DNA of 64,000 nt from Candidatus Staskawiczbacteria bacterium (GCA_903835075.1 CAILLM010000004.1:144532-208531), one strand, 5' to 3'; numbered from the stretch's first letter, positions 10,639 through 23,027 are shown. Numbers and translations are program-made. The notes: generated by a model not told the origin, from the letters alone.

Positions 10639-11145
10639 ATGAAGCATAGTAGAAAGATTGGTGATGGAGATGATGATGATTTTCCTGTCCGAATTGACGG
10701 AAAACGCCTAGACAGGCAAAAAAGGAAACTCATCAAGCAGTCTCGTGGTATATCTTTTCGGTGCGTCCATTGCTCCGTTGAGATTTCCACCAATGCCACT
10801 GCAACGGCCCATCGGAATCATTGTCCGATGTGTCTGTGGTCAAGGCACGTTGATAACTCTGTAGGGGACAGAAGGTCGACTTGTTTGTCAGCTATGAAGC
10901 CATTGGGGCTTTCAATCAAAGAACCTGGCGAAGAGCTAATGATTGTTCACCAATGTGTAGCTTGCGACAAGATTATCAGAAATCGTATCGCAGGCGATGA
11001 CAACAGTTTCGTAATTATGGATCTTCTAGAGAGCAGTTTGCTGCTCCCCGAAGAGAAAGAATGCGAGATCGCCAAGGCTGGCATACAATTATGTGTCGAT
11101 AGGGAACTTGTTTCCCAATGTCTTTGGGGCAAAGCGACGATATGA
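10639..11145 (+). CDS. RNHCP-domain zinc-finger protein
   Basis: 168 aa with the literal AHRNHCPMCLWSRHVD motif plus further CxxC pairs; clearly more GC-rich than its neighbours. Confidence 0.7.
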   Translation: MKHSRKIGDGDDDDFPVRIDGKRLDRQKRKLIKQSRGISFRCVHCSVEISTNATATAHRNHCPMCLWSRHVDNSVGDRRSTCLSAMKPLGLSIKEPGEELMIVHQCVACDKIIRNRIAGDDNSFVIMDLLESSLLLPEEKECEIAKAGIQLCVDRELVSQCLWGKATI

Positions 11146-12075: not shown

Positions 12076-12669
12076 TTGGACTATAAAATATTTTTTGTTA
12101 TTTTTTCTGTCGTTGCCGGGTTGGTAGGTTTTTTGCCTTACTTGGGAGATGTTTTCTATCGGAAAACGAAACCGCATGTGTACACTTGGCTTATTTGGGC
12201 GATAACCCAGGGCACTGCAACGCTTGGGATATATTATGGTGGTGGTGGTTGGGGAGGGCTGGAATTGACGATAGGAACTATTTTTGTCATCGTTATATTT
12301 TTATTTTCCTTGAAAGACGGAACTAAAAATATTACAAAATCCGATACGATTATATTGATAATGGCATTTGTGGCAATTTTATTTTGGTGGCAGTTAAAAC
12401 AGCCAGTATTGTCAGTTGTATTAGTTTCTACAATAGATATCTTCGGATATATTCCAACTTTCAGGAAGACATACAAGGATCCTTGGAGTGAAACACTGAC
12501 AACTTGGATTATATTCGCGTTATCTAATATCTTTGCAATATTGGCACTTAGCGAATATAATTTTTTAACAGTGACTTATTTGGCTTCAATCGCTATAGTA
12601 AACGTATTATTTTTTATATTCTGTGCATCGAGACGATATGTTAGTAAGAAAAATATTTTAGTTCAGTAG
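12076..12669 (+). CDS. integral membrane protein with a 3+3 TM internal repeat
   Basis: 197 aa, about 6 hydrophobic helices; repeated motif GFLPYLGDVFYRKTKPHVYTW / GYIPTFRKTYKDPWSETLTTW. Confidence 0.5.
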   Translation: MDYKIFFVIFSVVAGLVGFLPYLGDVFYRKTKPHVYTWLIWAITQGTATLGIYYGGGGWGGLELTIGTIFVIVIFLFSLKDGTKNITKSDTIILIMAFVAILFWWQLKQPVLSVVLVSTIDIFGYIPTFRKTYKDPWSETLTTWIIFALSNIFAILALSEYNFLTVTYLASIAIVNVLFFIFCASRRYVSKKNILVQ

Positions 12670-12691
12670 TTGTAAATAAACTTTTAAAAAT

Positions 12692-13024
12692 ATGGAAAAA
12701 ATAAAATTTAAACAAGATAAATATAAAAAGAATCGTGGCGGATATTCAAGATTTTTAGAAATAAAATGTGAAAGTTGTAGCGCTTTCATCGCCTTGTATC
12801 AGAAAGATGGGCCGGGTCCGCTGAAAAGGATGTATATAGATAGGATATTTTCTCCACAGAACTTAGTGAACTTACAAAAAGTTTCATTTAAAAAAATAAC
12901 CAACCTCACATGTTCTCATTGTAAACATATAATTGGTGTTCCAATTATCTACAAGAAGGAAAGTAGGCCTGCTTTTAGATTATTTGTCGGGGCTATAACC
13001 AAAAAGGTGGCAAAACTAAAATAG
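12692..13024 (+). CDS. 110-aa zinc-ribbon protein, copy 1
   Basis: CESC...CSHC pairs; paralog of 20775-21107 (7 of 110 residues differ). Confidence 0.7.
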   Translation: MEKIKFKQDKYKKNRGGYSRFLEIKCESCSAFIALYQKDGPGPLKRMYIDRIFSPQNLVNLQKVSFKKITNLTCSHCKHIIGVPIIYKKESRPAFRLFVGAITKKVAKLK

Positions 13025-13268
13025 TAAAAAGGTAATATATCTTATTTTCACCTAAAATTACTGGAAATAAGACACTTCCAAGATTTGTTAAAATCAAAAA
13101 CAAATGAGACACTAAAATGGTACGATATTTTGTCTCATTAGTCTCATTTCCCGAATAAAATTATAAGAAGTGAGACTCGGAGAATCTCGCCAATTTTATA
13201 TAAATTTTCTATAATTAAGCCCTACTAGGACACATCAGTTGGAAAACTCAAAAGGGTCTAATTTCCCC

Positions 13269-15023
13269 TTAGGGGATTGGGTTCGCAACTGACTCATTCA
13301 GCCATCGTGGAGAAAACGGCGTAGAAGCGCCGTTTTTAGCTGTAAAATCGGCTAAAATTCCAGGTTCGAGCGTGGCTAAAAGCGCTTTCTGTTCTTTAAG
13401 CTCGTTTTCTATCAACATATAGGGGTGTAGCTTATCGATAGTTAGGATTCCATCTTTTATGATTAGGTTCGAGCCGATAGTAGAAAATATCTCTCTTTTC
13501 TCTCTTAGGTTTGGCGTATTAAATTGTTTTAGTGCAAATGTGCAGAAATTAAAAACACGCTCGGATGTCTCAAGATCTCTGTCTAATTTTTCTTTGCTGC
13601 CTCCCATTTGTTTTTCTAAATTTGTTCTCTCAGAAATTATTTGTTTTTTCTGGGCCATAAAATCTTCGGGCGTGTAAAGCTCATACTTTGAATTAAGAGG
13701 GGAGGTGAACTCTCTGTTTAAATTTACTAATCTTTTTTGACAGTCATCAAATGCGTCTTGCAGAGAAACGCGAATGACTTTTTCTTCATTGCCGGACTCT
13801 TTTTGTTTTTCTTGTAAATAATCTATAGCTATTTTTAGATAACCGTCATCAATAGTTATATCTCCCAATATTTTATTAAACTGATTTTCCAAATCTTTAA
13901 CCTTAATATATTTTTGAGTGCAGTTAAGATTTCTTTTCTTTGTACATCGATAGTATATGTATTCTAAGATTTTGGGGTTTTCCATTAAGGAAATATCTGT
14001 TGAGCATTTTGGGCAAGCGGTGGTATTCACATGAGAAAATTTATGTTTGCATTTAGTGCAGATTATTTGATGTTTCTCTTCGGCCGTGATTGATGAGCCA
14101 CATTCTCCACATTTCATTGTTCCGGTAAAAGCGAATTCTCTTGTTTTTGGTTGTGGTTTGCCTTTTTTACCTAAAAGAATTTGTGCCCTCCTATATTCAT
14201 TCTCGGTGATCATGGGCTTATGATTGCCCTTAATCATAGCGATTTCTCCAGTCTCTGAATCTTTCCACGGATAAAAACCATAGTAAAAAGGACTATTAAA
14301 TATCTTATAAATAAGACTTATCGTTAGGGGATTACCTCCCTGTTTTCTGTGCATTATTGTTCTTAAACCCCATTCTTTATCGCTGATATTTCTAATTTTA
14401 GAAACCGAATAAGTTCCAGTAAGAAATAAATCCCACATTTTGCGGACAAGTTCAAAACGCTCTGGGTCTGGCGCGATAGTCTTGCTGCCTTTTTCTATTT
14501 CTACGTTTATATATCCAATCGGCCCCCCGGACGGTCGCCAGCCACGCATAGCCTTGCTGTTCAATCCGCGCTTCACATTTTTAGAAAGGCGCATTACATA
14601 ATCAGTAGCCCTGCCACCCTCTATGCTCATTAGGAGCCCGGCATCTTCTGGAAAGTACGAACGGCCAGGAGTTTTAATAACCTTAATAACGCCTTTTTGG
14701 AGCATCCATTGTAGCCTGCCATTATCAATCGGGTTGCGCGACAATCTGTCACAATCGTAACAGATTAAAGCGTTGGCCTCCCCATTCTCAATCCTATTCA
14801 ACATATCGTTGAATACAGGCCTTCCTGGGTCTTTGGCGCTCTTTTCTTCGGTGAATGGTGGTTTTACCAAATCCAACTGCTCGCGTTCAACTAAGCGCCT
14901 TAAAACTTCTTTCTGGTCGCCTATAGAAGCGATTTGTCTTTGGGAGGACTCCTCTGAACTTTTTCGGCAATACCCAAAAAATTTTGTTGTATCTTGTATT
15001 TTTTTATTCATATTTTTAAACAT
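13269..15023 (-). CDS. large serine recombinase (resolvase N-domain, recombinase domain, zinc ribbon)
   Basis: 584 aa; FGYCRKSSEESSQRQIASIGDQ (catalytic Ser region), CYDCDRLSRN, Cys-rich MKCGECGS...CTKCKH...CPKC. Confidence 0.9.
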   Translation of the reverse strand: MFKNMNKKIQDTTKFFGYCRKSSEESSQRQIASIGDQKEVLRRLVEREQLDLVKPPFTEEKSAKDPGRPVFNDMLNRIENGEANALICYDCDRLSRNPIDNGRLQWMLQKGVIKVIKTPGRSYFPEDAGLLMSIEGGRATDYVMRLSKNVKRGLNSKAMRGWRPSGGPIGYINVEIEKGSKTIAPDPERFELVRKMWDLFLTGTYSVSKIRNISDKEWGLRTIMHRKQGGNPLTISLIYKIFNSPFYYGFYPWKDSETGEIAMIKGNHKPMITENEYRRAQILLGKKGKPQPKTREFAFTGTMKCGECGSSITAEEKHQIICTKCKHKFSHVNTTACPKCSTDISLMENPKILEYIYYRCTKKRNLNCTQKYIKVKDLENQFNKILGDITIDDGYLKIAIDYLQEKQKESGNEEKVIRVSLQDAFDDCQKRLVNLNREFTSPLNSKYELYTPEDFMAQKKQIISERTNLEKQMGGSKEKLDRDLETSERVFNFCTFALKQFNTPNLREKREIFSTIGSNLIIKDGILTIDKLHPYMLIENELKEQKALLATLEPGILADFTAKNGASTPFSPRWLNESVANPIP

Positions 15024-15170
15024 ACTAAAAGGGACTGGAAAGCAAAAGGTTATTTGTTAAGGACAACCCAGTTTCCAGCCCCTTGTAGTATTCTATTGAT
15101 ATAAATAAAATACCCTTTGCCATGCTGAATTGTCCTTAACGATTTAATTATATAACATTTCTTGGTTTTA

Positions 15171-15449
15171 TCAACGTTTTGCATGTCCGCCACCCCTCAT
15201 TGGCGTTGGGGGCATCCTCCCAATACTATCAATTTCATCGAAAAATTCGATAATTTCTTTCCCATTTACTTCGGAAAATTTTATTTTTTTACTTATTTTT
15301 TTTAGCCTCCAAACATCCCAGTTATCAAAAGAATGAGGGCAGTAAGCATCTTCTCTCCAGCGTTTTTTACAATCACTACAATAGTTCGAATTTTGAATAA
15401 AAAGTGCGTTTATATGAGCCTCAGTTGTTGGTATAAATTTGTTTTGCAT
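15171..15449 (-). CDS. hypothetical small Cys/His-containing protein
   Basis: 92-aa ORF between the recombinase and primase genes; CSDCKKRW...YCPH. Confidence 0.4.
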   Translation of the reverse strand: MQNKFIPTTEAHINALFIQNSNYCSDCKKRWREDAYCPHSFDNWDVWRLKKISKKIKFSEVNGKEIIEFFDEIDSIGRMPPTPMRGGGHAKR

Positions 15450-15613
15450 ATTTTGATTATTTAATTAAACATGTTCTATTTTGCTAGTTCTGCCTAGCAG
15501 ATGACCAGCAACAGGCAACTGATTTAATGTTTTGTATCCACGCATCCCACCGCGTGGATACATATAAATACTGCTGGTTACTAGTTATTACTATATAGAT
15601 AGATATCCTATAA

Positions 15614-17578
15614 CTAGCACGATTCAATCTGTGATATATCGGGAGGATTCAGTCCGCTATCTTTTTCTATAAAATACAAAAGTTCATTGCTCTTTCCTAC
15701 CGGATTAAAAAGTTTAAGCCCTCTTTTTATAGCCTCTGCTCTGGTTATTTCTTTAACGCCTTCTTTCCCATTTGCTAATAATTTAGTTGCCATTTTGATG
15801 GCGGTATCCCCTCCAATTTTTAAATGCTTAAAATCTTTTCTGCCGAGTAATTCATCCCTCCTCTCAAGCTCATAAATGATCCCAGCCACCGCCTCATTTA
15901 AGGCCTGCTCTTTCGGTTTATGATCTCCCAAATATTCAAAATCAATTCCGCTATCGCTGATTTTAATGCTTATATCAAAATCAGAAAGTTTTTTACCAGC
16001 TTTAGTTTTTAAATGTTTAACTATTAAAAATTTTTCTCCATCTTTTTCAAATTCCTCAAGGGCTATGTGTCCGCTTATCGAAGCGTTTATTGCTGATGAA
16101 CCGCGAGACATTTCAGCGTCGTCGGCCCTCATAAAACCATTTTTCTTTTTATTGTGGTGCGTGAAAATAACCGTTATGCCCTCTCGATTGATTCTCTTAA
16201 ATCTGTCTAAAACTTTCTGCATTTCTTGACTGCTATTTTCTTCTGCATCGTGTATTGCCCTTAAACTGTCAAACATAATAACTCCAATATTTTTCTCCTT
16301 AGCTTCTTTAATAAGATTATCAACAAATTCATCTGTGAGTTTTGAGCCTTGAGCGATGCGATAGAAAATAGAAAGCGAGGGATCCGTAAGATTGAGAAGC
16401 TTTAGTCTATCCTGAATTAAGCATGCAATATCTTCTTCATTTACAATCATTACATTGTTTTTCTCTGTCGCGAATTTTCCAAACAAAGAAGTGCCGGTGA
16501 CAATATGTTTAGCATAAAGAAATAGCCACCACGATTTCCATCCGTTTGGCGGTGCCGATATCATATTCATAGCGCCTTTTTCGCACAGTATGTCAATTAC
16601 ATATCGTACCGGAGGAAATATTGTCGCCATAAGTTCAGCGTGGGTCATGGCCGGCAGATAATTATTTACAACATCATTCTCCGGACTGTTTTGATTTTGG
16701 TTGTTCCAATTCATGGTTTCTAGGTGATAACATTTTTCAAACATTCCTTCTCTGTAATCCTTTCTATCCCATTTTTCACGCATCAAGCCGGAGCTTCTAA
16801 ATATCCTATCTGCGACTACTGTATTATTTTGGCAGAAAAACATTAATGATCCCACAAAAGATAAATCGGCTTCGGATTGCGACTTTTTTTCTTCTTTTCT
16901 AAAATACTTCTCCCAATTTCCTTGATATAAGTCTTTTAGTTTTTCTCCGTGTTTGCTTTTGAACATCACCTCTAATATTTTGTTGTCGTCCGGCAAAAGA
17001 GTGGACTGTTGTGTTTGTGGAATTTGTTTTTCTTTTTTAGGATTATCCTTAATAAATGAATTATGCCATTTTAGGAAAAAATCCTGGTCATATTGCTTTA
17101 ATTCTTTATAATCGCCATAAATGTTTCCAGTAACTGTAAAATATCTGCCCCTACAATATCTCTCAATATCGCCGTCTCCAATATAGGTTTTGGCTCCTTT
17201 AAAATCAGCCTCGCATAAAATAAAGATATGAAGACCAGTTCCAGATGGAGAGATTTCTATATAACTTGGAAATAAATCAACAATATCTTTTGCCCATTGT
17301 TTTAAAGTGAATCCGTCTTCTTCAAAACAGTGGTCTAGATCGATCCCGACTACCCCCTGTGTAAAAACATACCCCAATCCATTAAATTGGTTAGTCTCTA
17401 AAAGTTTTTTACAATTTTCAAAACTCAGCCAGTCATTAGGATTTGTACTAGCTGCTTTTTGAGCAGTATTTTTATATGGCACTTTAGTGGGTTTTTCTTT
17501 TCCGGCAACTTTTTCAAATTTCCAAACTATCCACTGTTTTTGCTCTTTTAATATTTGAGGAAATGCATCATATGACAT
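15614..17578 (-). CDS. bifunctional PrimPol-type primase with a RecA/DnaB-like (RepA-type) ATPase
   Basis: 654 aa. The N-terminus has GVVGIDLDHC and SPSGTGLHIFI (PrimPol motifs). The C-terminal half has a P-loop-like SAPPNGWKSWW and a Walker-B-like GVIMFDSL. Confidence 0.8.
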   Translation of the reverse strand: MSYDAFPQILKEQKQWIVWKFEKVAGKEKPTKVPYKNTAQKAASTNPNDWLSFENCKKLLETNQFNGLGYVFTQGVVGIDLDHCFEEDGFTLKQWAKDIVDLFPSYIEISPSGTGLHIFILCEADFKGAKTYIGDGDIERYCRGRYFTVTGNIYGDYKELKQYDQDFFLKWHNSFIKDNPKKEKQIPQTQQSTLLPDDNKILEVMFKSKHGEKLKDLYQGNWEKYFRKEEKKSQSEADLSFVGSLMFFCQNNTVVADRIFRSSGLMREKWDRKDYREGMFEKCYHLETMNWNNQNQNSPENDVVNNYLPAMTHAELMATIFPPVRYVIDILCEKGAMNMISAPPNGWKSWWLFLYAKHIVTGTSLFGKFATEKNNVMIVNEEDIACLIQDRLKLLNLTDPSLSIFYRIAQGSKLTDEFVDNLIKEAKEKNIGVIMFDSLRAIHDAEENSSQEMQKVLDRFKRINREGITVIFTHHNKKKNGFMRADDAEMSRGSSAINASISGHIALEEFEKDGEKFLIVKHLKTKAGKKLSDFDISIKISDSGIDFEYLGDHKPKEQALNEAVAGIIYELERRDELLGRKDFKHLKIGGDTAIKMATKLLANGKEGVKEITRAEAIKRGLKLFNPVGKSNELLYFIEKDSGLNPPDISQIESC

Positions 17579-17583
17579 ATAAT

Positions 17584-17751
17584 TTACTTTTTAATTTTTA
17601 ATTTAGAAATATCAACATTTTTTGTAATGGCCCCGACTAGGCATATAAGATTTTCAAAGTAATTCAAAGCTTCGTCATCTGATATGGTTTTCTTATTTTT
17701 GAGTTCGTATAACTCCTTAAATTTTTGTATATACTTTTGCTTGTCTAACAT
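17584..17751 (-). CDS. possible 55-aa protein upstream of the primase gene
   Basis: Not in the ORF track (under 60 aa). My translation is MLDKQKYIQKFKELYELKNKKTISDDEALNYFENLICLVGAITKNVDISKLKIKK. Its stop lies just upstream of the primase ATG. Confidence 0.3.
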   Translation of the reverse strand: MLDKQKYIQKFKELYELKNKKTISDDEALNYFENLICLVGAITKNVDISKLKIKK

Positions 17752-17752
17752 A

Positions 17753-17982
17753 AAAAAATCCGCTCATCTGCTGGCAGGTTTTCATCCTTTACATGACACC
17801 TGCCCGCAAATAAACGGACTTTCTAAAAGGATGAAATTTATGTCAGCTATTAAAAATTAAAACGTAAAAAGCCGACAGTTTATTCGCTGCCGGCTTAGAG
17901 TATGACTTGATTTTATAAAACGAAAAAGCCAAAACAATAAACGACAGTTTAAAAAAATAAACTGCAATCTATTGTTTTGGCT
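17753..17982 (-). terminator. three tandem stem-loop/U-tract structures (minus-strand sense)
   Basis: Hairpins at about 17753-17818, 17857-17896 and 17916-17982. Each is followed on the minus strand by a T-rich run (TTTTTTT, TTTTTACGTTTT, TTTTTCGTTTT). Confidence 0.5.
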
Positions 17983-18124
17983 CGTATAGCTCACCTCTGT
18001 GAGTTACCTATAGTAAGGAAACAATATTTTTAATGTGTGCATCCCGCACACAAGATGATTTCTGAACTTTAATGAACTCTTTACTCTATTATATAGCGAT
18101 CCCAATTGGTCAGTCAAGCCCTAC

Positions 18125-18430
18125 CTAAAAATAAATTATGCCGTCAGGGGTAAATTTAAAATAATTCATATGTTTGCAAAAGCGGCATTTCCAGTACTTT
18201 CCAATGCTGAAATCTCTCAATAATTTTTTAATTTTATCGGGCGAAGCAGTCGGGTACTCTTTTCCTAAAAAACTACTGCATTTTTTGCATTTCCATTTGA
18301 ACTTCTCATTCATTGTATAAATAAATATTAAAGTTTCAGTATGGTTTAAAATATCATCCACTTCTTGTCTTAAAACCATCAAATTTTCTTTATCCAGGAT
18401 TCGCTCAATTGCTCTCTTTCGGGAAAGCAC
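18125..18430 (-). CDS. zinc-ribbon protein, distantly similar in pattern to the 110-aa paralogs
   Basis: 101 aa; KCKKCSSF...(spacer)...CRFCKH, compared with KCESCSAF...CSHCKH in the 110-aa proteins. Confidence 0.45.
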   Translation of the reverse strand: MLSRKRAIERILDKENLMVLRQEVDDILNHTETLIFIYTMNEKFKWKCKKCSSFLGKEYPTASPDKIKKLLRDFSIGKYWKCRFCKHMNYFKFTPDGIIYF

Positions 18431-19224
18431 ACGGTTTCGAAATATGGATGACCACTAACGGCACTTTCAGTTGTGCAAAGGTGGCTAAGGATGTCGACCA
18501 AATCATTTTCTCGATTCATGGTCTGGCAGAAACTCATGAGGCGATTACTCAGAAACCAGGTTCATTTTTGCTGGCTCGTAGGCACATCGTAGAGGCTTCT
18601 ACGATGACCAGCGTTTCCATCAATATGGTGCTGATTAAGCGTAACTTTCATGAGCTGAATGATGTTTTCGCCTATTTCAGCCAACGATGTGAATTATCTA
18701 CATTCTATTCGCCAATTCCAATTAAATCTAATTCTGGTTTCGACTATAGTGAAGATTCTTTGGAAGTGACCGAGGAACTTCTCGAAGAATATCGGGCGAA
18801 GTTATCTATGATACCTCCTCCAAAACTTGGCTTAAAGCACGGTTACCAGAACATCTATCTTAACGATCCAACTTGTTATACTTCGGCTACAATACCATTG
18901 GCAAACTGCGCCGCTGGCAAGTACAAAATCGTTATTGACTATGATGCCGATGTTTACGCCTGTAACTTTTTCAGAAGTCCGGAATTCTTGTGTGGCAATA
19001 TCCTTTCCGGAGACGCAAAGGAGATATGGCATACCGGAAAAGGCTTTAATCATTTCAGGAGACTGAGCTTGAACGAGTCATTCCCGGATAAATGCAACAA
19101 TTGCATCAAACGCTTTAAATGTGCAGGCGGTTGCCTGGCATGGACAGAAGGATACAGAAATGAAAATTATGAAAACGTCAACGACTTCAGGTGTGAAATT
19201 GGGCATGCATTTGTTGGAGGTTGA
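18409..19224 (+). pseudogene. radical SAM/SPASM enzyme, 5'-truncated (no CxxxCxxC cluster region)
   Basis: The 271-aa frame begins mid-domain (WMTTNGTF...). The C-terminus is SPASM-like (CAAGKYKIVIDYDADVYACNF...CNNC...CAGGC). Upstream in-frame sequence is AT-rich with a stop at 18322. GC-rich. Confidence 0.65.
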
Positions 19225-20160
19225 GATTACCACCAGGTGTAATCTTGACTGTAAACATTGTTATAATCGTAACCGGGTTATGGCGGACATGCCGATGAGT
19301 GAGATCCTCTCGCTATTGGCATTTTCCCAGCAAAACGGAGTTTCTTCGTTTGTGGTTTCGGGCGGAGAGGCATCTTTCATCCGCAATTTGACTATTTGGC
19401 AAATTATTTGCTGGAAACTAAGCCTGACATCAGGACCGTCCTGCAAACAAACGGAATCGTTCGCAGGAAAAATCTTGATATGCTGAAAGGCTTCAAGGTT
19501 GTCCATATAAGCTATGAGCCTGACGATTCTACGGTTAGAAAAATTGTAGGTGCTGACATTATCCGTCTTGCATTGGACTTAAAGGATCGGGGAATATATC
19601 CTTACCTTTTTGTCACAGTTCACCAGGGAAATATCAACAGGATCGATACCATGGTGGATACCGCAAACAGTTTGGGGTTGGATATCGGTTTTAATCTCTG
19701 CATCTCAACGCATGAGAGTCCTGAATTAGTTCTTTCACCCAAGCAAACGATTGAGACCAGTCAAAAACTGCTCGATCTGTATCTTGCTAAAAGAATTCTC
19801 AGGTTCACCTCGCCGTTAGTTGCCGTCATTCAGGATAAGCAATCCGATGGCTATATCGGCAACAGAGGCGGATGCACAGCCGGAATAGCTACATGTTCTG
19901 TGACGGTTGACGGGGATGTTATTCCTTGCCCATTTTTCAGAACAGTTTCAGCAGGGAATATTCACGTGCAAACATTAGAGGATATCTGGCTTGGATCGCC
20001 AATCTTTGATTCGCTGAGGGCCAGAAATAAGTTCGATGAGCCATGTGGTTCTTGTAAGCATCTTTCGTATTGTGGGGGATGCCGTAAAAGGGCGTTAGAC
20101 TCTTCGGGCAAGCTGACGGGAGCAGACCCGGGTTGCTTTTTGGAGCTTTGTAAAGTATAA
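19160..20160 (+). pseudogene. radical SAM/SPASM enzyme disrupted by a frameshift near 19376
   Basis: The N-terminal frame gives LEVEITTRCNLDCKHCYN...VVSGGEASF. The sequence then continues in another frame as HPQFDYLANYLLETKPDIRTVLQTNGI...CTAGIATCSVTVDGDVIPC...CGSCKHLSYCGGC. This is consistent with one missing base in TCTTTCAT. Confidence 0.7.
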
Positions 20161-20190
20161 CGGACAGTGCAATACTGGCCGTTCTTTTTT
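20160..20190 (+). terminator. intrinsic terminator
   Basis: ACGGACAGtgcaataCTGGCCGT followed by TCTTTTTTT. Confidence 0.65.
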
Positions 20191-20241
20191 TAGCATTTTT
20201 CTGTTAAAAGATGTAAAATATAATAAGTTAAATCTAAACAC

Positions 20242-20775
20242 ATGACATTAAGTAAAAATAATATAATAATTACTGAGCCCACGTTGGAAGATGTTTTGGG
20301 ATTAGTTTTTGTACATAAGAAAACATGGTTAGATACGTATCCAAATAAAAAATATAAGATTTTTAAAAAAGATATTTTATTGAAAGATTTCGATAGTGAG
20401 AAAAAAATAAATAAATGGAAAAGAAGAATAAAAAATAACGGCAAAAAAAAGGAATATATTTGTGTTGCTAAAGATAGAGAAAAGGTTGTTGGATTTTGTT
20501 CTATTTCAAAAGGAGAGAAAATAAACGAATTAAAAACTATATATGTTTTGCCGGAATACCAAAGAATGAAAATAGGAAATAAACTATTTAATAAAGCAAT
20601 TAATTGGCTTGGTGACAAGAAAAACATAAAGACATTAGTAGCAATCTATAACGAAAATGCAATCAAGTTTTACAAAAAACATGGCTTTGCCAAAACGACG
20701 GTTACTAAAAGTTATAAATTTCCGAATGGAAAAATTATGCCGGAAATGCAATTAGTATTTAGCCGTAATAAATAA
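20242..20775 (+). CDS. GNAT-family N-acetyltransferase
   Basis: 177 aa; VVGFCSISKG...IYVLPEYQRMKIGNKLFNKAINWL (acetyl-CoA binding region); its stop overlaps the next ATG (TAATG). Confidence 0.8.
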   Translation: MTLSKNNIIITEPTLEDVLGLVFVHKKTWLDTYPNKKYKIFKKDILLKDFDSEKKINKWKRRIKNNGKKKEYICVAKDREKVVGFCSISKGEKINELKTIYVLPEYQRMKIGNKLFNKAINWLGDKKNIKTLVAIYNENAIKFYKKHGFAKTTVTKSYKFPNGKIMPEMQLVFSRNK

Positions 20776-21107
20776 TGGAAAAAATACAATTTAAACAAGA
20801 TAAATACAAAAAGAATCGTGGAGGTTATTCAAGATTTTTAGAAATAAAATGTGAAAGTTGTAGTGCTTTCATCGCTCTGTATCAAAAGGATGGCCCTGGT
20901 CCACTGAAGAGGATGTATATAGATAGAATATTTTCTCCGCAGAACTTAGCAAACTTACAAAAAGTTTCATTTAAAAAAATAGCCAATCTCACGTGTTCTC
21001 ATTGTAAACATATAATTGGTGTTCCAATCATCTACAAAAAAGAAAGTAGGCCTGCTTTTAGGTTATTTGTCGGGGCTGTAATTAAGAAGGTATCAAAAAT
21101 AAAATAA
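20775..21107 (+). CDS. 110-aa zinc-ribbon protein, copy 2
   Basis: By my hand count, about 32 of 333 nt differ from copy 1 and most are third-position changes; 7 aa differ. Confidence 0.7.
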   Translation: MEKIQFKQDKYKKNRGGYSRFLEIKCESCSAFIALYQKDGPGPLKRMYIDRIFSPQNLANLQKVSFKKIANLTCSHCKHIIGVPIIYKKESRPAFRLFVGAVIKKVSKIK

Positions 21108-21132
21108 AAAAAGTTAATGAATAATTTTAATA

Positions 21133-22131
21133 TTGATATATAATATGGAAAAAATATATCCAACTAAATTAAAGAAAGGGGACGAGGTAAGAGTCATTGC
21201 TCCATCTCAATCAATGGCTTTAATTTCAAAAGAAACCAGAGATATTGCAAACGAGAGATTTGCCGAGTTGGGATTGGTTTTAAGTTTTGGTAAACATATT
21301 GAAATTAACGACGAGTTTAATTCTTCTGACATCGAGTCAAGAGTTGAAGATTTGCATGATGCATTTTCTGATAAAAACGTTAAGGCAATTTTGACTGTTA
21401 TAGGGGGATTCAACAGTAACCAACTTTTAAGAGATTTAGATTGGGATTTAATTAAGAACAATCCTAAAATATTTTGCGGTTATTCTGATATCACAGCTTT
21501 AAGTAATTCTATATTTTCTAAGACCGGGTTGGTCACTTACTACGGGCCTCATTATTCGACTTTTGGTCAAGAGTTATATTTTGATTACACTTTAGATTAT
21601 TTCAAAAATTGTTTATTATCAGACGATTCGTTTACTATTAATCCTAGCGACAATTGGAGCGATGACGTTTGGTATAAAAACCAAAAGAAAAGAAATCTTA
21701 TTAAAAATAGTGGCCATTTAGTTATTAACGAAGGTAGCGCCTCTGGCACAATACTTGGAGGCAATCTTTGCACATTTAACCTATTGCAGGGTACAGAATA
21801 TTCCCCAAACTTAAAAGATTCTTTTCTTTTTATTGAGGACGACGATATGTCTCTGCCGATTACTTTTGACAGAGATTTGCAATCACTTATTCACCAACCT
21901 GGTTTTGAAAATGTTAAGGGTATTGTTTTCGGTAGATTCCAAAAGAAGAGCGAGATGTCGGATGATATATTAATTAAAATTATCAAAACCAAAAAAGAAT
22001 TAAATAATTTGCCTATAATTGCAAATGTAGATTTTGGACATACATCTCCAATAATCACTTTTCCGATAGGCGGTGAAGCTAGTTTGGAAATTGCCAATGG
22101 AACGGTGAAGCTGGAAATAGCAAAACACTAA
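21133..22131 (+). CDS. S66-family LD-carboxypeptidase / MccF-like serine peptidase
   Basis: 332 aa; GDEVRVIAPS, ILTVIGGFNSNQLL, FCGYSDITAL (nucleophile Ser), DFGHTSP. Confidence 0.8.
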   Translation: MIYNMEKIYPTKLKKGDEVRVIAPSQSMALISKETRDIANERFAELGLVLSFGKHIEINDEFNSSDIESRVEDLHDAFSDKNVKAILTVIGGFNSNQLLRDLDWDLIKNNPKIFCGYSDITALSNSIFSKTGLVTYYGPHYSTFGQELYFDYTLDYFKNCLLSDDSFTINPSDNWSDDVWYKNQKKRNLIKNSGHLVINEGSASGTILGGNLCTFNLLQGTEYSPNLKDSFLFIEDDDMSLPITFDRDLQSLIHQPGFENVKGIVFGRFQKKSEMSDDILIKIIKTKKELNNLPIIANVDFGHTSPIITFPIGGEASLEIANGTVKLEIAKH

Positions 22132-22244
22132 ATGTTCGAAATTAAAGAGTTTAAATTTGCATCTAAATTTTTGATGAATACGTATTACTTTATGTTGGAG
22201 GGATGGGTCGGTTTCTTCAACATTTTATAAGTAATTAATTAAGC

Positions 22245-22281
22245 GTTCTTCGCGAAGTTTTTTAAAAACTTCGCGAAGAAC
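22245..22281. promoter_or_regulatory. perfect 18-bp-arm inverted repeat holding two CTTCGCGAAG palindromes 21 bp apart; candidate operator or hairpin
   Basis: GTTCTTCGCGAAGTTTTT t AAAAACTTCGCGAAGAAC, ending 8 nt before the ATG at 22290. Confidence 0.5.
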
Positions 22282-22289
22282 AATAACAC

Positions 22290-23027
22290 ATGAATAAACA
22301 AAAATATAGTTTTTTATTAGTAACAGGCTTAATAGCTTTAAGTTTTTTGGTTACAACTTCAGCATTTGCACAAACAAATAGCAATGGAGTAGGCCGTGGA
22401 ATGATGAATAGGGGTGGGCAAGGTCCAGTAATTTCCGGAACGGTTTTAACTGTAAGTGGCAATACCATAACAGTTTCCGCTAAAAGAGGGTTGGGTGATA
22501 AAAATAATTCAACAGTTACAACTTATACGGTTGACGCTACAAATGCCAAAGTAACTAAAAATGGTACAGCTTCAACAGTTTCTGCAATCGTAGTTGGAGA
22601 CAAATTATCAGTCCAAGGAACAATTACAGGGACAAATATTGTAGCAAAAAACATTCGTGATGGTGTGGTTCAGCCACCAATCCGAGGCAATGGTCAGCCA
22701 ATAGTTGCTGGAAAAATCACAGCAATTAGTGGCAACAGTATAACCATTACAAATAGTAGCAATGTAGTTTATACAGTTGATGTGGCAACTGCTAAGTTGG
22801 TTGTAAGAGGGGTGACTAGCCCAACAATTTCAAGTCTTGCAGTTGGTGATAATGTAGTAGTGCAGGGAACAGTTAACGGAAACAACATTACTGCTTCATC
22901 GGTGATTGATCAAAAAGTAAAACAAGCAGTAAGCGATGATAATTCAGGAAATCAAAAGTCAGAAACAGGAATGGGTGGAATGATGAGAGGAATTGGAAAT
23001 TTCTTTAAGCACATGTTTGGTTTTTAG
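22290..23027 (+). CDS. secreted protein with two internal beta-rich repeats
   Basis: The signal-peptide-like N-terminus ends in SAFAQ. Repeated module: ISGTVLTVSGNTITVS...YTVDATNAKV...VGDKLSVQGT versus KITAISGNSITITN...YTVDVATAKL...VGDNVVVQGT. Confidence 0.65.
   Translation: MNKQKYSFLLVTGLIALSFLVTTSAFAQTNSNGVGRGMMNRGGQGPVISGTVLTVSGNTITVSAKRGLGDKNNSTVTTYTVDATNAKVTKNGTASTVSAIVVGDKLSVQGTITGTNIVAKNIRDGVVQPPIRGNGQPIVAGKITAISGNSITITNSSNVVYTVDVATAKLVVRGVTSPTISSLAVGDNVVVQGTVNGNNITASSVIDQKVKQAVSDDNSGNQKSETGMGGMMRGIGNFFKHMFGF

Follow-up and report, generated by a model that had tools for sequence, protein, structure and literature searches.

Two copies of a Patescibacteria zinc-protein gene flank a serine recombinase element and captured genes: a possible Campbell-type insertion

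Circular DNA that shares a segment with a chromosome can enter it by a Campbell-type single crossover, as in lambda-dgal type integration and suicide-plasmid insertion-duplication, and direct repeats of the shared segment then flank the insert. Integrative elements and prophages of the large serine recombinase type (phiC31, Bxb1, A118, SCCmec Ccr) have the recombinase gene at one end and no long identical attachment-site (att) repeats. Genomic islands that target tRNA genes classically use tyrosine integrases. The mobile elements of Patescibacteria are poorly described, and no literature directly relevant to the present case was found. Here we analyzed a stretch of 64,000 nucleotides (nt) from Candidatus Staskawiczbacteria bacterium (GCA_903835075.1 CAILLM010000004.1:144532-208531; hereafter the window), in which two copies of a gene for a 110-amino acid (aa) zinc-binding protein, Zn1 and Zn2, bracket a 7.7-kb island containing a serine recombinase element. 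Our favored explanation, to which we give an even chance, is that the two copies are the homology duplicated when circular DNA with a Zn allele of its own entered by Campbell-type insertion.

Zn1 (positions 12692-13024, plus strand; family hidden Markov model (HMM), E = 3e-59) starts 22 nt past a host membrane-protein gene (12076-12669), and Zn2 (20775-21107, plus strand; identified by its open reading frame (ORF), comparison with Zn1 and the family HMM) is followed after 37 nt by a host LD-carboxypeptidase gene (21145-22131). An ungapped comparison in direct orientation gave exactly the divergence counted by hand in an earlier note on this DNA, with 32 of 333 nt and 7 of 110 residues changed (K5Q, V59A, T70A, I102V, T103I, A107S and L109I). 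One of the nucleotide differences lies in the stop codon; the 31 in the 330 coding nt comprise 24 transitions and 7 transversions. By the Nei-Gojobori method the nonsynonymous divergence (dN) was 0.027 and the synonymous divergence (dS) 0.51 (dN/dS 0.053). The repeated segment spans 12692-13036 and 20775-21119 at ~90% identity, starts at the ATG, fades ~12 nt past the stop codon and contains no identical run longer than 38 nt. Similarity in the 300-nt flanks was not above that of shuffled sequence (upstream, P = 0.12; downstream, P = 0.53). A profile HMM of 120 family members detected only Zn1 and Zn2 in the window. The two are each other's closest known relatives: 32 differences separate them, compared with 37 and 43 to the homologue on contig L061. 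Among 15 billion proteins, the set at 90% identity or higher consisted of Zn1, Zn2 and that homologue (P0001) only, and among species-representative genomes the best match was 67%.

The arrangement was also examined as a possible misassembly through the repeat, and this was rejected. Both the membrane protein-Zn1-recombinase and the GNAT-Zn2-LD-carboxypeptidase junctions are spanned in independent assemblies, including megahit contigs built at k = 141, and the longest identical run of the repeat is far shorter than this. All contigs with an exact match to the recombinase, membrane protein, LD-carboxypeptidase or Zn2 gene had the occupied arrangement or broke inside the repeat; no empty site or alternative junction was seen among them. 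The DNA between the copies had the content described in the earlier note: a serine recombinase, a PrimPol-helicase, two broken radical SAM genes (rSAM1 and rSAM2) and a GNAT acetyltransferase, the last of which is intact.

The origin of this arrangement is illuminated by the 2.7-kb contig L061 (and its shorter twin, L062), which carries P0001 in the order rSAM, GNAT, Zn. Three segments of L061 aligned to the window: L061 1-2137 to window 18984-21118 (95.7% identity; the rSAM1 3' end, rSAM2, GNAT and Zn2), L061 1788-2384 to window 12688-13305 (83%; Zn1, a spacer that we call D1 and the first 37 nt of the recombinase 3' end) and L061 2412-2734 to window 22150-22479 (72.8%; the start of the secreted-protein gene, which comes after LD-carboxypeptidase in the window). 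Both contigs read GNAT-Zn-D1 continuously around one Zn gene. The right end of the island (GNAT-Zn) and its left end (Zn-D1-recombinase) were thus once joined around a single Zn gene, and the island in the window is a circular permutation of a segment built around it.

Divergence from L061 is not uniform along the island. Identity is 98-99% from 18984 to ~20680 and falls to 81-92% across the final 90 nt of GNAT and the whole of Zn2. The dS between window and L061 was 0.10 for rSAM2, 0.04 for GNAT codons 1-147, 0.56 for GNAT codons 148-177, 0.54 for Zn2 and 0.73 for Zn1. This pattern places a breakpoint of homologous recombination between lineages at ~20683 (GNAT codon ~147), which shows that lineages as diverged as these do exchange DNA by homology. 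Contigs of two independent assemblies (L073 and L080) start near 20605, close to this breakpoint; these starts may reflect co-existing strains.

The dS between Zn1 and Zn2 (0.51) is 5-10 times that of rSAM2 and GNAT to L061, and the copies must therefore have diverged long before the island took its present form. The same contrast excludes a duplication at the time the island formed and identifies the copies as alleles from different lineages. The earlier note had taken the low dN/dS as a sign that both copies are now maintained. This does not follow, since copies that diverged in separate lineages bring with them a signal of selection that mostly predates their meeting. We also consider it highly improbable that Zn was duplicated in situ, in tandem or as a segment, and that the element arrived by chance between copies that had since diverged. 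The direct orientation of the copies and their mutual closest relationship would fit such a history. However, the similarity ends at the ORF ends, from the ATG to ~12 nt past the stop, and not in the flanks where the earlier note had placed the signature of a simple segmental duplication; the copies are 5-10 times more diverged at synonymous sites than the adjacent rSAM and GNAT genes are from L061 (0.04-0.10); and an in-situ duplication does not predict that the island ends should be contiguous in L061. Nor was any genome found with both copies and no island between them.

L061 also reveals where the recombinase acts. Spacer D1 (13025-13268, plus strand) is a conserved non-coding segment of 244 nt that follows Zn1 in the window and directly follows the single, GNAT-linked Zn gene in L061. 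It is ~85-86% identical to L061 2126-2347 at aligned positions, apart from a 22-nt indel; synonymous sites of the adjoining gene differ by 37-47% between window and L061. Homology to L061 extends past D1 to ~13305 and thus covers 37 nt of the recombinase ORF at its 3' end; beyond this point the L061 sequence passes into a terminator of its own, followed by host DNA. The alignment marks an unoccupied recombinase integration site in L061, ~250 nt past its single Zn gene, where D1 ends. In the window, an element-side hairpin with a T-run (~13312-13338), inside the recombinase ORF, replaces the L061 terminator. The left recombinase junction was placed at 13269-13345 from the L061 alignment, comparison of the unoccupied site (attB) with the left att site (attL), and the fold.

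D1 contains a promoter-like sequence (TCGCCA-17-TATAAT, 13187-13215) that is conserved in L061, as well as hairpins, and the L061 terminator lies ~115 nt downstream of the promoter-like site. A 120-nt stretch of D1 folded better than shuffled sequences (z = -2.9 for L061 and -2.1 for the window). The D1 region (13025-13345; L061 2126-2416) may thus be a small RNA gene that is used as the recombinase target. A search of the island and L061 against known RNA families (Rfam) gave no match. Descent of the integration site from a tRNA gene was considered and set aside, as similarity to tRNA-Asn was not significant (P ~ 0.08).

The element itself has a compact core. The recombinase (13269-15023, minus strand; 584 aa, intact) has the full domain set of a large serine recombinase (Resolvase PF00239, E = 2e-17; Recombinase PF07508; Zn_ribbon_recom PF13408), matches a PHROG integrase family (E = 1e-56) and has hundreds of Patescibacteria homologues. 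A 92-aa ORF without a family match (15171-15449, minus strand) separates it from the replication gene, at the position where the relative L063 has an HTH_17 excisionase-like gene. The putative replication protein of the element is a 654-aa PrimPol-type primase fused to an AAA_25 helicase-like ATPase (15614-17578, minus strand; Pfam NrS1-1_pol-like_HBD and AAA_25; PHROG DNA primase, E = 8e-75). Upstream of both genes lies a 55-aa ORF (17584-17751, minus strand) that is conserved in related elements, with tblastn matches of 45-83% identity in L012, L013, L014, L016, L017, L025, L063 and L064. An inverted repeat with 25-nt arms (84% complementary, 6-nt spacer) is present at 17927-17982, in a 370-nt non-coding gap upstream of the 55-aa ORF, and may serve as a terminator or as a site for replication or regulation. 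These genes define a core element of 5.1 kb that comparison places in a family of integrative elements of Patescibacteria. Elements whose recombinases are 60-80% identical to this one have their core genes in the same order (55-aa ORF, replication gene, recombinase) and differ in the cargo beyond the 55-aa ORF, which includes restriction-modification and toxin genes. Searches of viral contigs found neither close relatives of the recombinase nor a match to the integration site, and defence-system models had no match among the island genes.

Comparison with these relatives clarified the behaviour of the recombinase gene end. In L012 (11711-11785), L016 (11681-11755) and L015 (11680-11751), the recombinase stop codon lies inside an opposite-strand tRNA-Asn or tRNA-Gln gene, with overlaps of 42, 42 and 13 nt in L012, L016 and L015, respectively (recombinases at 68-73% identity), and the variable part of related recombinases is their last ~28 codons. 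The recombinase gene of this family thus runs at its 3' end into the integration site, where it provides a replacement 3' end for the target; in the three tRNA cases the 3' half of the tRNA seems to come from the element, inside its own recombinase ORF. The exchange of hairpins at the window junction parallels this tRNA-restoring design. No Zn gene was found within 10 kb of six related recombinases (60-80% identity), and none of the six elements had gene-length flanking repeats. The duplication is therefore not a feature of the element family. Contrary to a suggestion in the earlier note, the Zn gene is not part of the biology of the mobile element, and in our favored explanation it acted only as homology; three of the related recombinases overlap tRNA genes instead, and the Zn family is chromosomal.

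The right end of the element is altered. An intact element would be bounded by attL and a right att site (attR); here attL can be recognized by comparison with the empty site in L061, and no second copy of the site core or right arm was detected in the 64 kb (allowing up to 6 mismatches in 24), from which we conclude that attR is missing. Comparison of 13000-13330 with 17700-18500, 18300-20300 and 20100-20800 identified no direct or att-like repeats above the level of shuffled sequence. Junction J3 (18385-18409) joins element DNA to a radical SAM gene from which the first ~80 codons are missing. This gene, rSAM1' (18409-19224, plus strand), is a 5'-truncated radical SAM/SPASM pseudogene; it matches Pfam SPASM only, aligns to positions 81-315 of a 339-position NCBIfam maturase model, and is cut at codon ~80 exactly at the end of the element DNA. 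Upstream of J3 its reading frame is the antisense of a CxxC ORF (18125-18430, minus strand), and the missing N-terminal fragment was not found elsewhere in the window. The following gene, rSAM2 (19121-20160, plus strand), has lost 1 nt near 19377 and is thereby frameshifted; L061 does not share this deletion and has the gene intact (Radical_SAM and SPASM). With one gene truncated and the other frameshifted, the captured cargo is decaying. The intact GNAT gene (20242-20775, plus strand; Pfam) has a stop codon that overlaps the Zn2 start (TAATG).

The CxxC ORF encodes 84-101 aa with two CxxC motifs and had been described as a third, more distant zinc-ribbon copy. The CxxCSxF...CxxCKH pattern is indeed present. 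The ORF is nevertheless not a homologue of Zn1 and Zn2: the Zn family HMM gave E = 1.3 (4.5 bits), and BLASTP aligned only 27 residues around one CxxC. It had no matches in related elements.

These observations can be joined in a single path. The element would first have integrated beside Zn-D1 in a donor arranged like L061 (rSAM1-rSAM2-GNAT-Zn-D1-site). An aberrant circle would then have formed by illegitimate joining of the rSAM1 interior to the far end of the element, near 18385-18409, with loss of attR, giving a molecule with the content rSAM1'-rSAM2-GNAT-Zn-D1-attL-recombinase...ORF. Such a circle would lack the element's own attachment site (attP), its recombinase would be unusable, and it would have entered a new genome by homology. 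A single crossover between its Zn allele and the recipient Zn gene (membrane protein-Zn-LD-carboxypeptidase), at ~90% identity and with identical runs of up to 38 nt, would be predicted to yield the order host-Zn1-D1-attL-element-rSAM1'-rSAM2-GNAT-Zn2-host, which is the order observed. All five junctions are explained in this way, as are the missing attR and the truncated rSAM1. The gene order on the host side also fits: L005 has a membrane-protein gene of 75% identity 2.5 kb from its Zn gene, and in L061 the Zn gene has the secreted-protein gene downstream of it. The closest LD-carboxypeptidase homologues (80% identity) lie in different neighbourhoods.

The earlier note had raised the possibility that the island carries its own copy of the gene next to which it integrates. 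In modified form this holds: the island has its own copy of the gene flanking the recombinase target, and L061 represents a related sequence with a single Zn copy and an empty site ~250 nt past it. The reading of the note as entry by the recombinase, in which a 7.8-kb element with rSAM1'-rSAM2-GNAT-Zn2 as cargo entered a native Zn1-D1-site locus by attP x attB recombination and left attR right after Zn2, is in our judgement improbable. Related elements do bear variable cargo beyond the 55-aa ORF, and a 9-nt stretch after Zn2 (AATAATTTT) resembles the L061 sequence just right of the homology end (AATAATTAT), but a 9-nt match is within chance at 26% G+C, no right-arm sequence of the site follows Zn2, and the junction dinucleotides of the candidate attL and attR mismatch. 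In addition, rSAM-GNAT-Zn lies to the left of the site in L061, so that any circle that captured it would also contain D1 and attL and would lack attP.

A further explanation treats Zn1 and Zn2 as native paralogues in a locus membrane protein-Zn1-D1-site-rSAM1-rSAM2-GNAT-Zn2-LD-carboxypeptidase, into which the element inserted after D1 and which later lost, by deletion, attR together with ~250 nt from the start of rSAM1. Nearby Zn pairs are common (5 of 23 genome loci, plus contig L002), the element sits exactly where the L061 empty site predicts, and deletions beside mobile elements are frequent. However, second copies elsewhere are far more diverged (41-52% identity to the query) and lie in a GTP cyclohydrolase II operon. 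The D1 spacer follows the GNAT-linked Zn gene in L061 and the other copy here, so that extra rearrangements would be needed, as would the additional deletion for the missing attR and truncated rSAM1. The rSAM and GNAT genes are 98-99% identical to L061 compared with ~73% for the host flanks, which marks the block as recently imported. We regard this explanation as unlikely, though less so than the others weighed here.

Several points weigh against the insertion of an aberrant circle by homology. No contig was found with the predicted recipient (membrane protein-Zn-LD-carboxypeptidase without the island), the predicted donor (GNAT-Zn-D1-attL-recombinase) or the circle. L061 is not the donor: its Zn gene and D1 are 11-15% diverged from both window copies and its rSAM and GNAT genes are 98-99% identical, so that an extra recombination event (the 20683 breakpoint) must be assumed. 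A four-taxon comparison of the Zn genes (with L061, then L001 and L002 as outgroups) gave 6, 4 and 2 informative sites for the three groupings, too few to reveal the expected chimeric pattern. Homologous recombination is inefficient at 90% identity over ~345 nt, and aberrant excision followed by homologous entry amounts to two rare events.

A more general version of homologous entry would make the Zn copy a second, recombinase-independent route, by which a circle replicated by the PrimPol protein lands on the Zn gene when a host lacks the recombinase site. We think this doubtful, slightly less so than entry by the recombinase. Were it true, exit would occur by recombination between the copies, and gene-length repeats preserved by selection would be the functional ends of a composite mobile unit, not a one-off accident.

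The Zn protein belongs to a widespread, conserved chromosomal family of Patescibacteria. More than 1,150 homologues of ~108-112 aa were identified, and the named ones are all from Patescibacteria (Minisyncoccia, Paceibacterota, Woesebacteria, Uhrbacteria, Doudnabacteria and others); 570 clusters were recovered when 1.8 billion representatives were searched with a profile. Across 45 sequences 27 positions are invariant, including C26, C29, C74 and C77, which form two CxxC pairs, and the invariant motifs include YQKDGxG and RPAFRL. The AlphaFold (AF2) model has a predicted local distance difference test (pLDDT) score of 90.9. Pfam searches gave weak matches to five beta-tent families (At4g08330, RIG-I C-terminal domain, Yippee/Mis18, STEEP1 and SelR), with the window proteins below the cut-off (20.3 bits compared with 25.6 for RIG-I_C-RD) and the homologue P0006 above two of them (28.5 compared with 27, and 28.3 compared with 25.6). 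The best Foldseek matches of the model in the PDB, at marginal scores (E 0.08-1, template modelling (TM) score ~0.4), were also all beta-tent proteins: the DRH-3/RIG-I C-terminal domain, cereblon CULT, YPEL5, MsrB1 and Mis18. The modelled structure is thus probably a beta-tent zinc fold.

The genomic context of the family gives a hint of its function. At five genome loci (L034 10379-12925; L043, L044, L045 and L056), a second, more distant Zn paralogue is the first gene of a conserved operon that also contains a GTP cyclohydrolase II-like gene and an orotidine monophosphate (OMP) decarboxylase/guanylate-kinase gene. Zn domains are also fused to guanylate kinase (three cases), GTP cyclohydrolase II, an NTPase (NTPase_1) and a cytidylyltransferase. 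The operon and fusions point to an uncharacterised nucleotide pathway in Patescibacteria, and from this context we infer that the Zn protein is a conserved host protein of nucleotide metabolism or nucleotide binding. Contig L002 (10001-11715) contains a Zn homologue (86% identity), an opposite-strand 342-aa gene with an HTH_38 domain and, at the contig end, a 60%-identical partial Zn copy; here a further Zn pair brackets a possibly foreign gene.

Two features outside the island were also recorded. A perfect 18-nt inverted repeat (GTTCTTCGCGAAGTTTTT / AAAAACTTCGCGAAGAAC) at 22245-22281 lies just upstream of the secreted-protein gene, and L061 retains a hairpin at the corresponding place although several bases have changed. 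Two genes upstream of Zn1, an RNHCP-domain protein gene (10639-11145) has a G+C content of 41-45%, compared with ~30-35% for its neighbours.

Taken together, the Zn duplication is a fairly ordinary genome rearrangement, and the case is a new example, in Patescibacteria, of a known type of event: the capture of flanking DNA and its insertion by homology. It illustrates a route by which host genes next to a small integrative element can be taken up by it and reach another lineage through homologous recombination. It also cautions against a common inference: a low dN/dS between nearby copies need not mean that both are maintained. The by-products may be worth more than the duplication itself, namely the element family whose recombinase genes overlap tRNA genes, the use of D1 as an integration site, and an uncharacterised family of 110-aa zinc proteins tied to GTP cyclohydrolase II and guanylate-kinase-like genes.

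Compared with described beta-tent zinc proteins (Mss4, MsrB, Yippee/Mis18, cereblon CULT and the RIG-I C-terminal domain), the Zn family shares two CxxC knuckles ~48 residues apart; this corresponds to the beta-tent arrangement of one zinc knuckle per beta-sheet apex and was found throughout the 45 sequences compared. It differs in being specific to Patescibacteria, in its length of ~110 aa, in its own invariant motifs and in its partners from nucleotide metabolism. The element resembles phiC31, Bxb1, A118 and the SCCmec Ccr type in its Resolvase, Recombinase and zinc-ribbon domains, in the absence of long identical att repeats and in the location of the recombinase gene at one end. In contrast to these, the 3' end of its recombinase ORF overlaps the site and replaces the 3' end of the target, and the element in the window lacks attR and appears stranded. 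Its relatives in L012, L015 and L016 resemble tRNA-gene-targeting genomic islands in occupying tRNA-Asn or tRNA-Gln genes and giving the tRNA its 3' part, using a serine recombinase where such islands classically have tyrosine integrases; at the window junction itself no tRNA gene is present (12-22 kb of the window). The closest parallels for the arrangement as a whole are Campbell-type insertions. The present case differs from lambda-dgal type specialised transducing genomes and suicide-plasmid insertions in that the homology is ~345 nt at ~90% identity and that the parents and the circle are known here by inference, as well as in its Patescibacteria host and its serine, not tyrosine, recombinase. 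It shares with both the direct repeats of a common segment on either side of the insert and captured host DNA that adjoins the original integration site. As in a Campbell-type insertion, the homology ends at the same points on both sides, the flanks are unrelated, and the ends of the insert are contiguous around one copy of the gene in the parental-type sequences L061 and L062.

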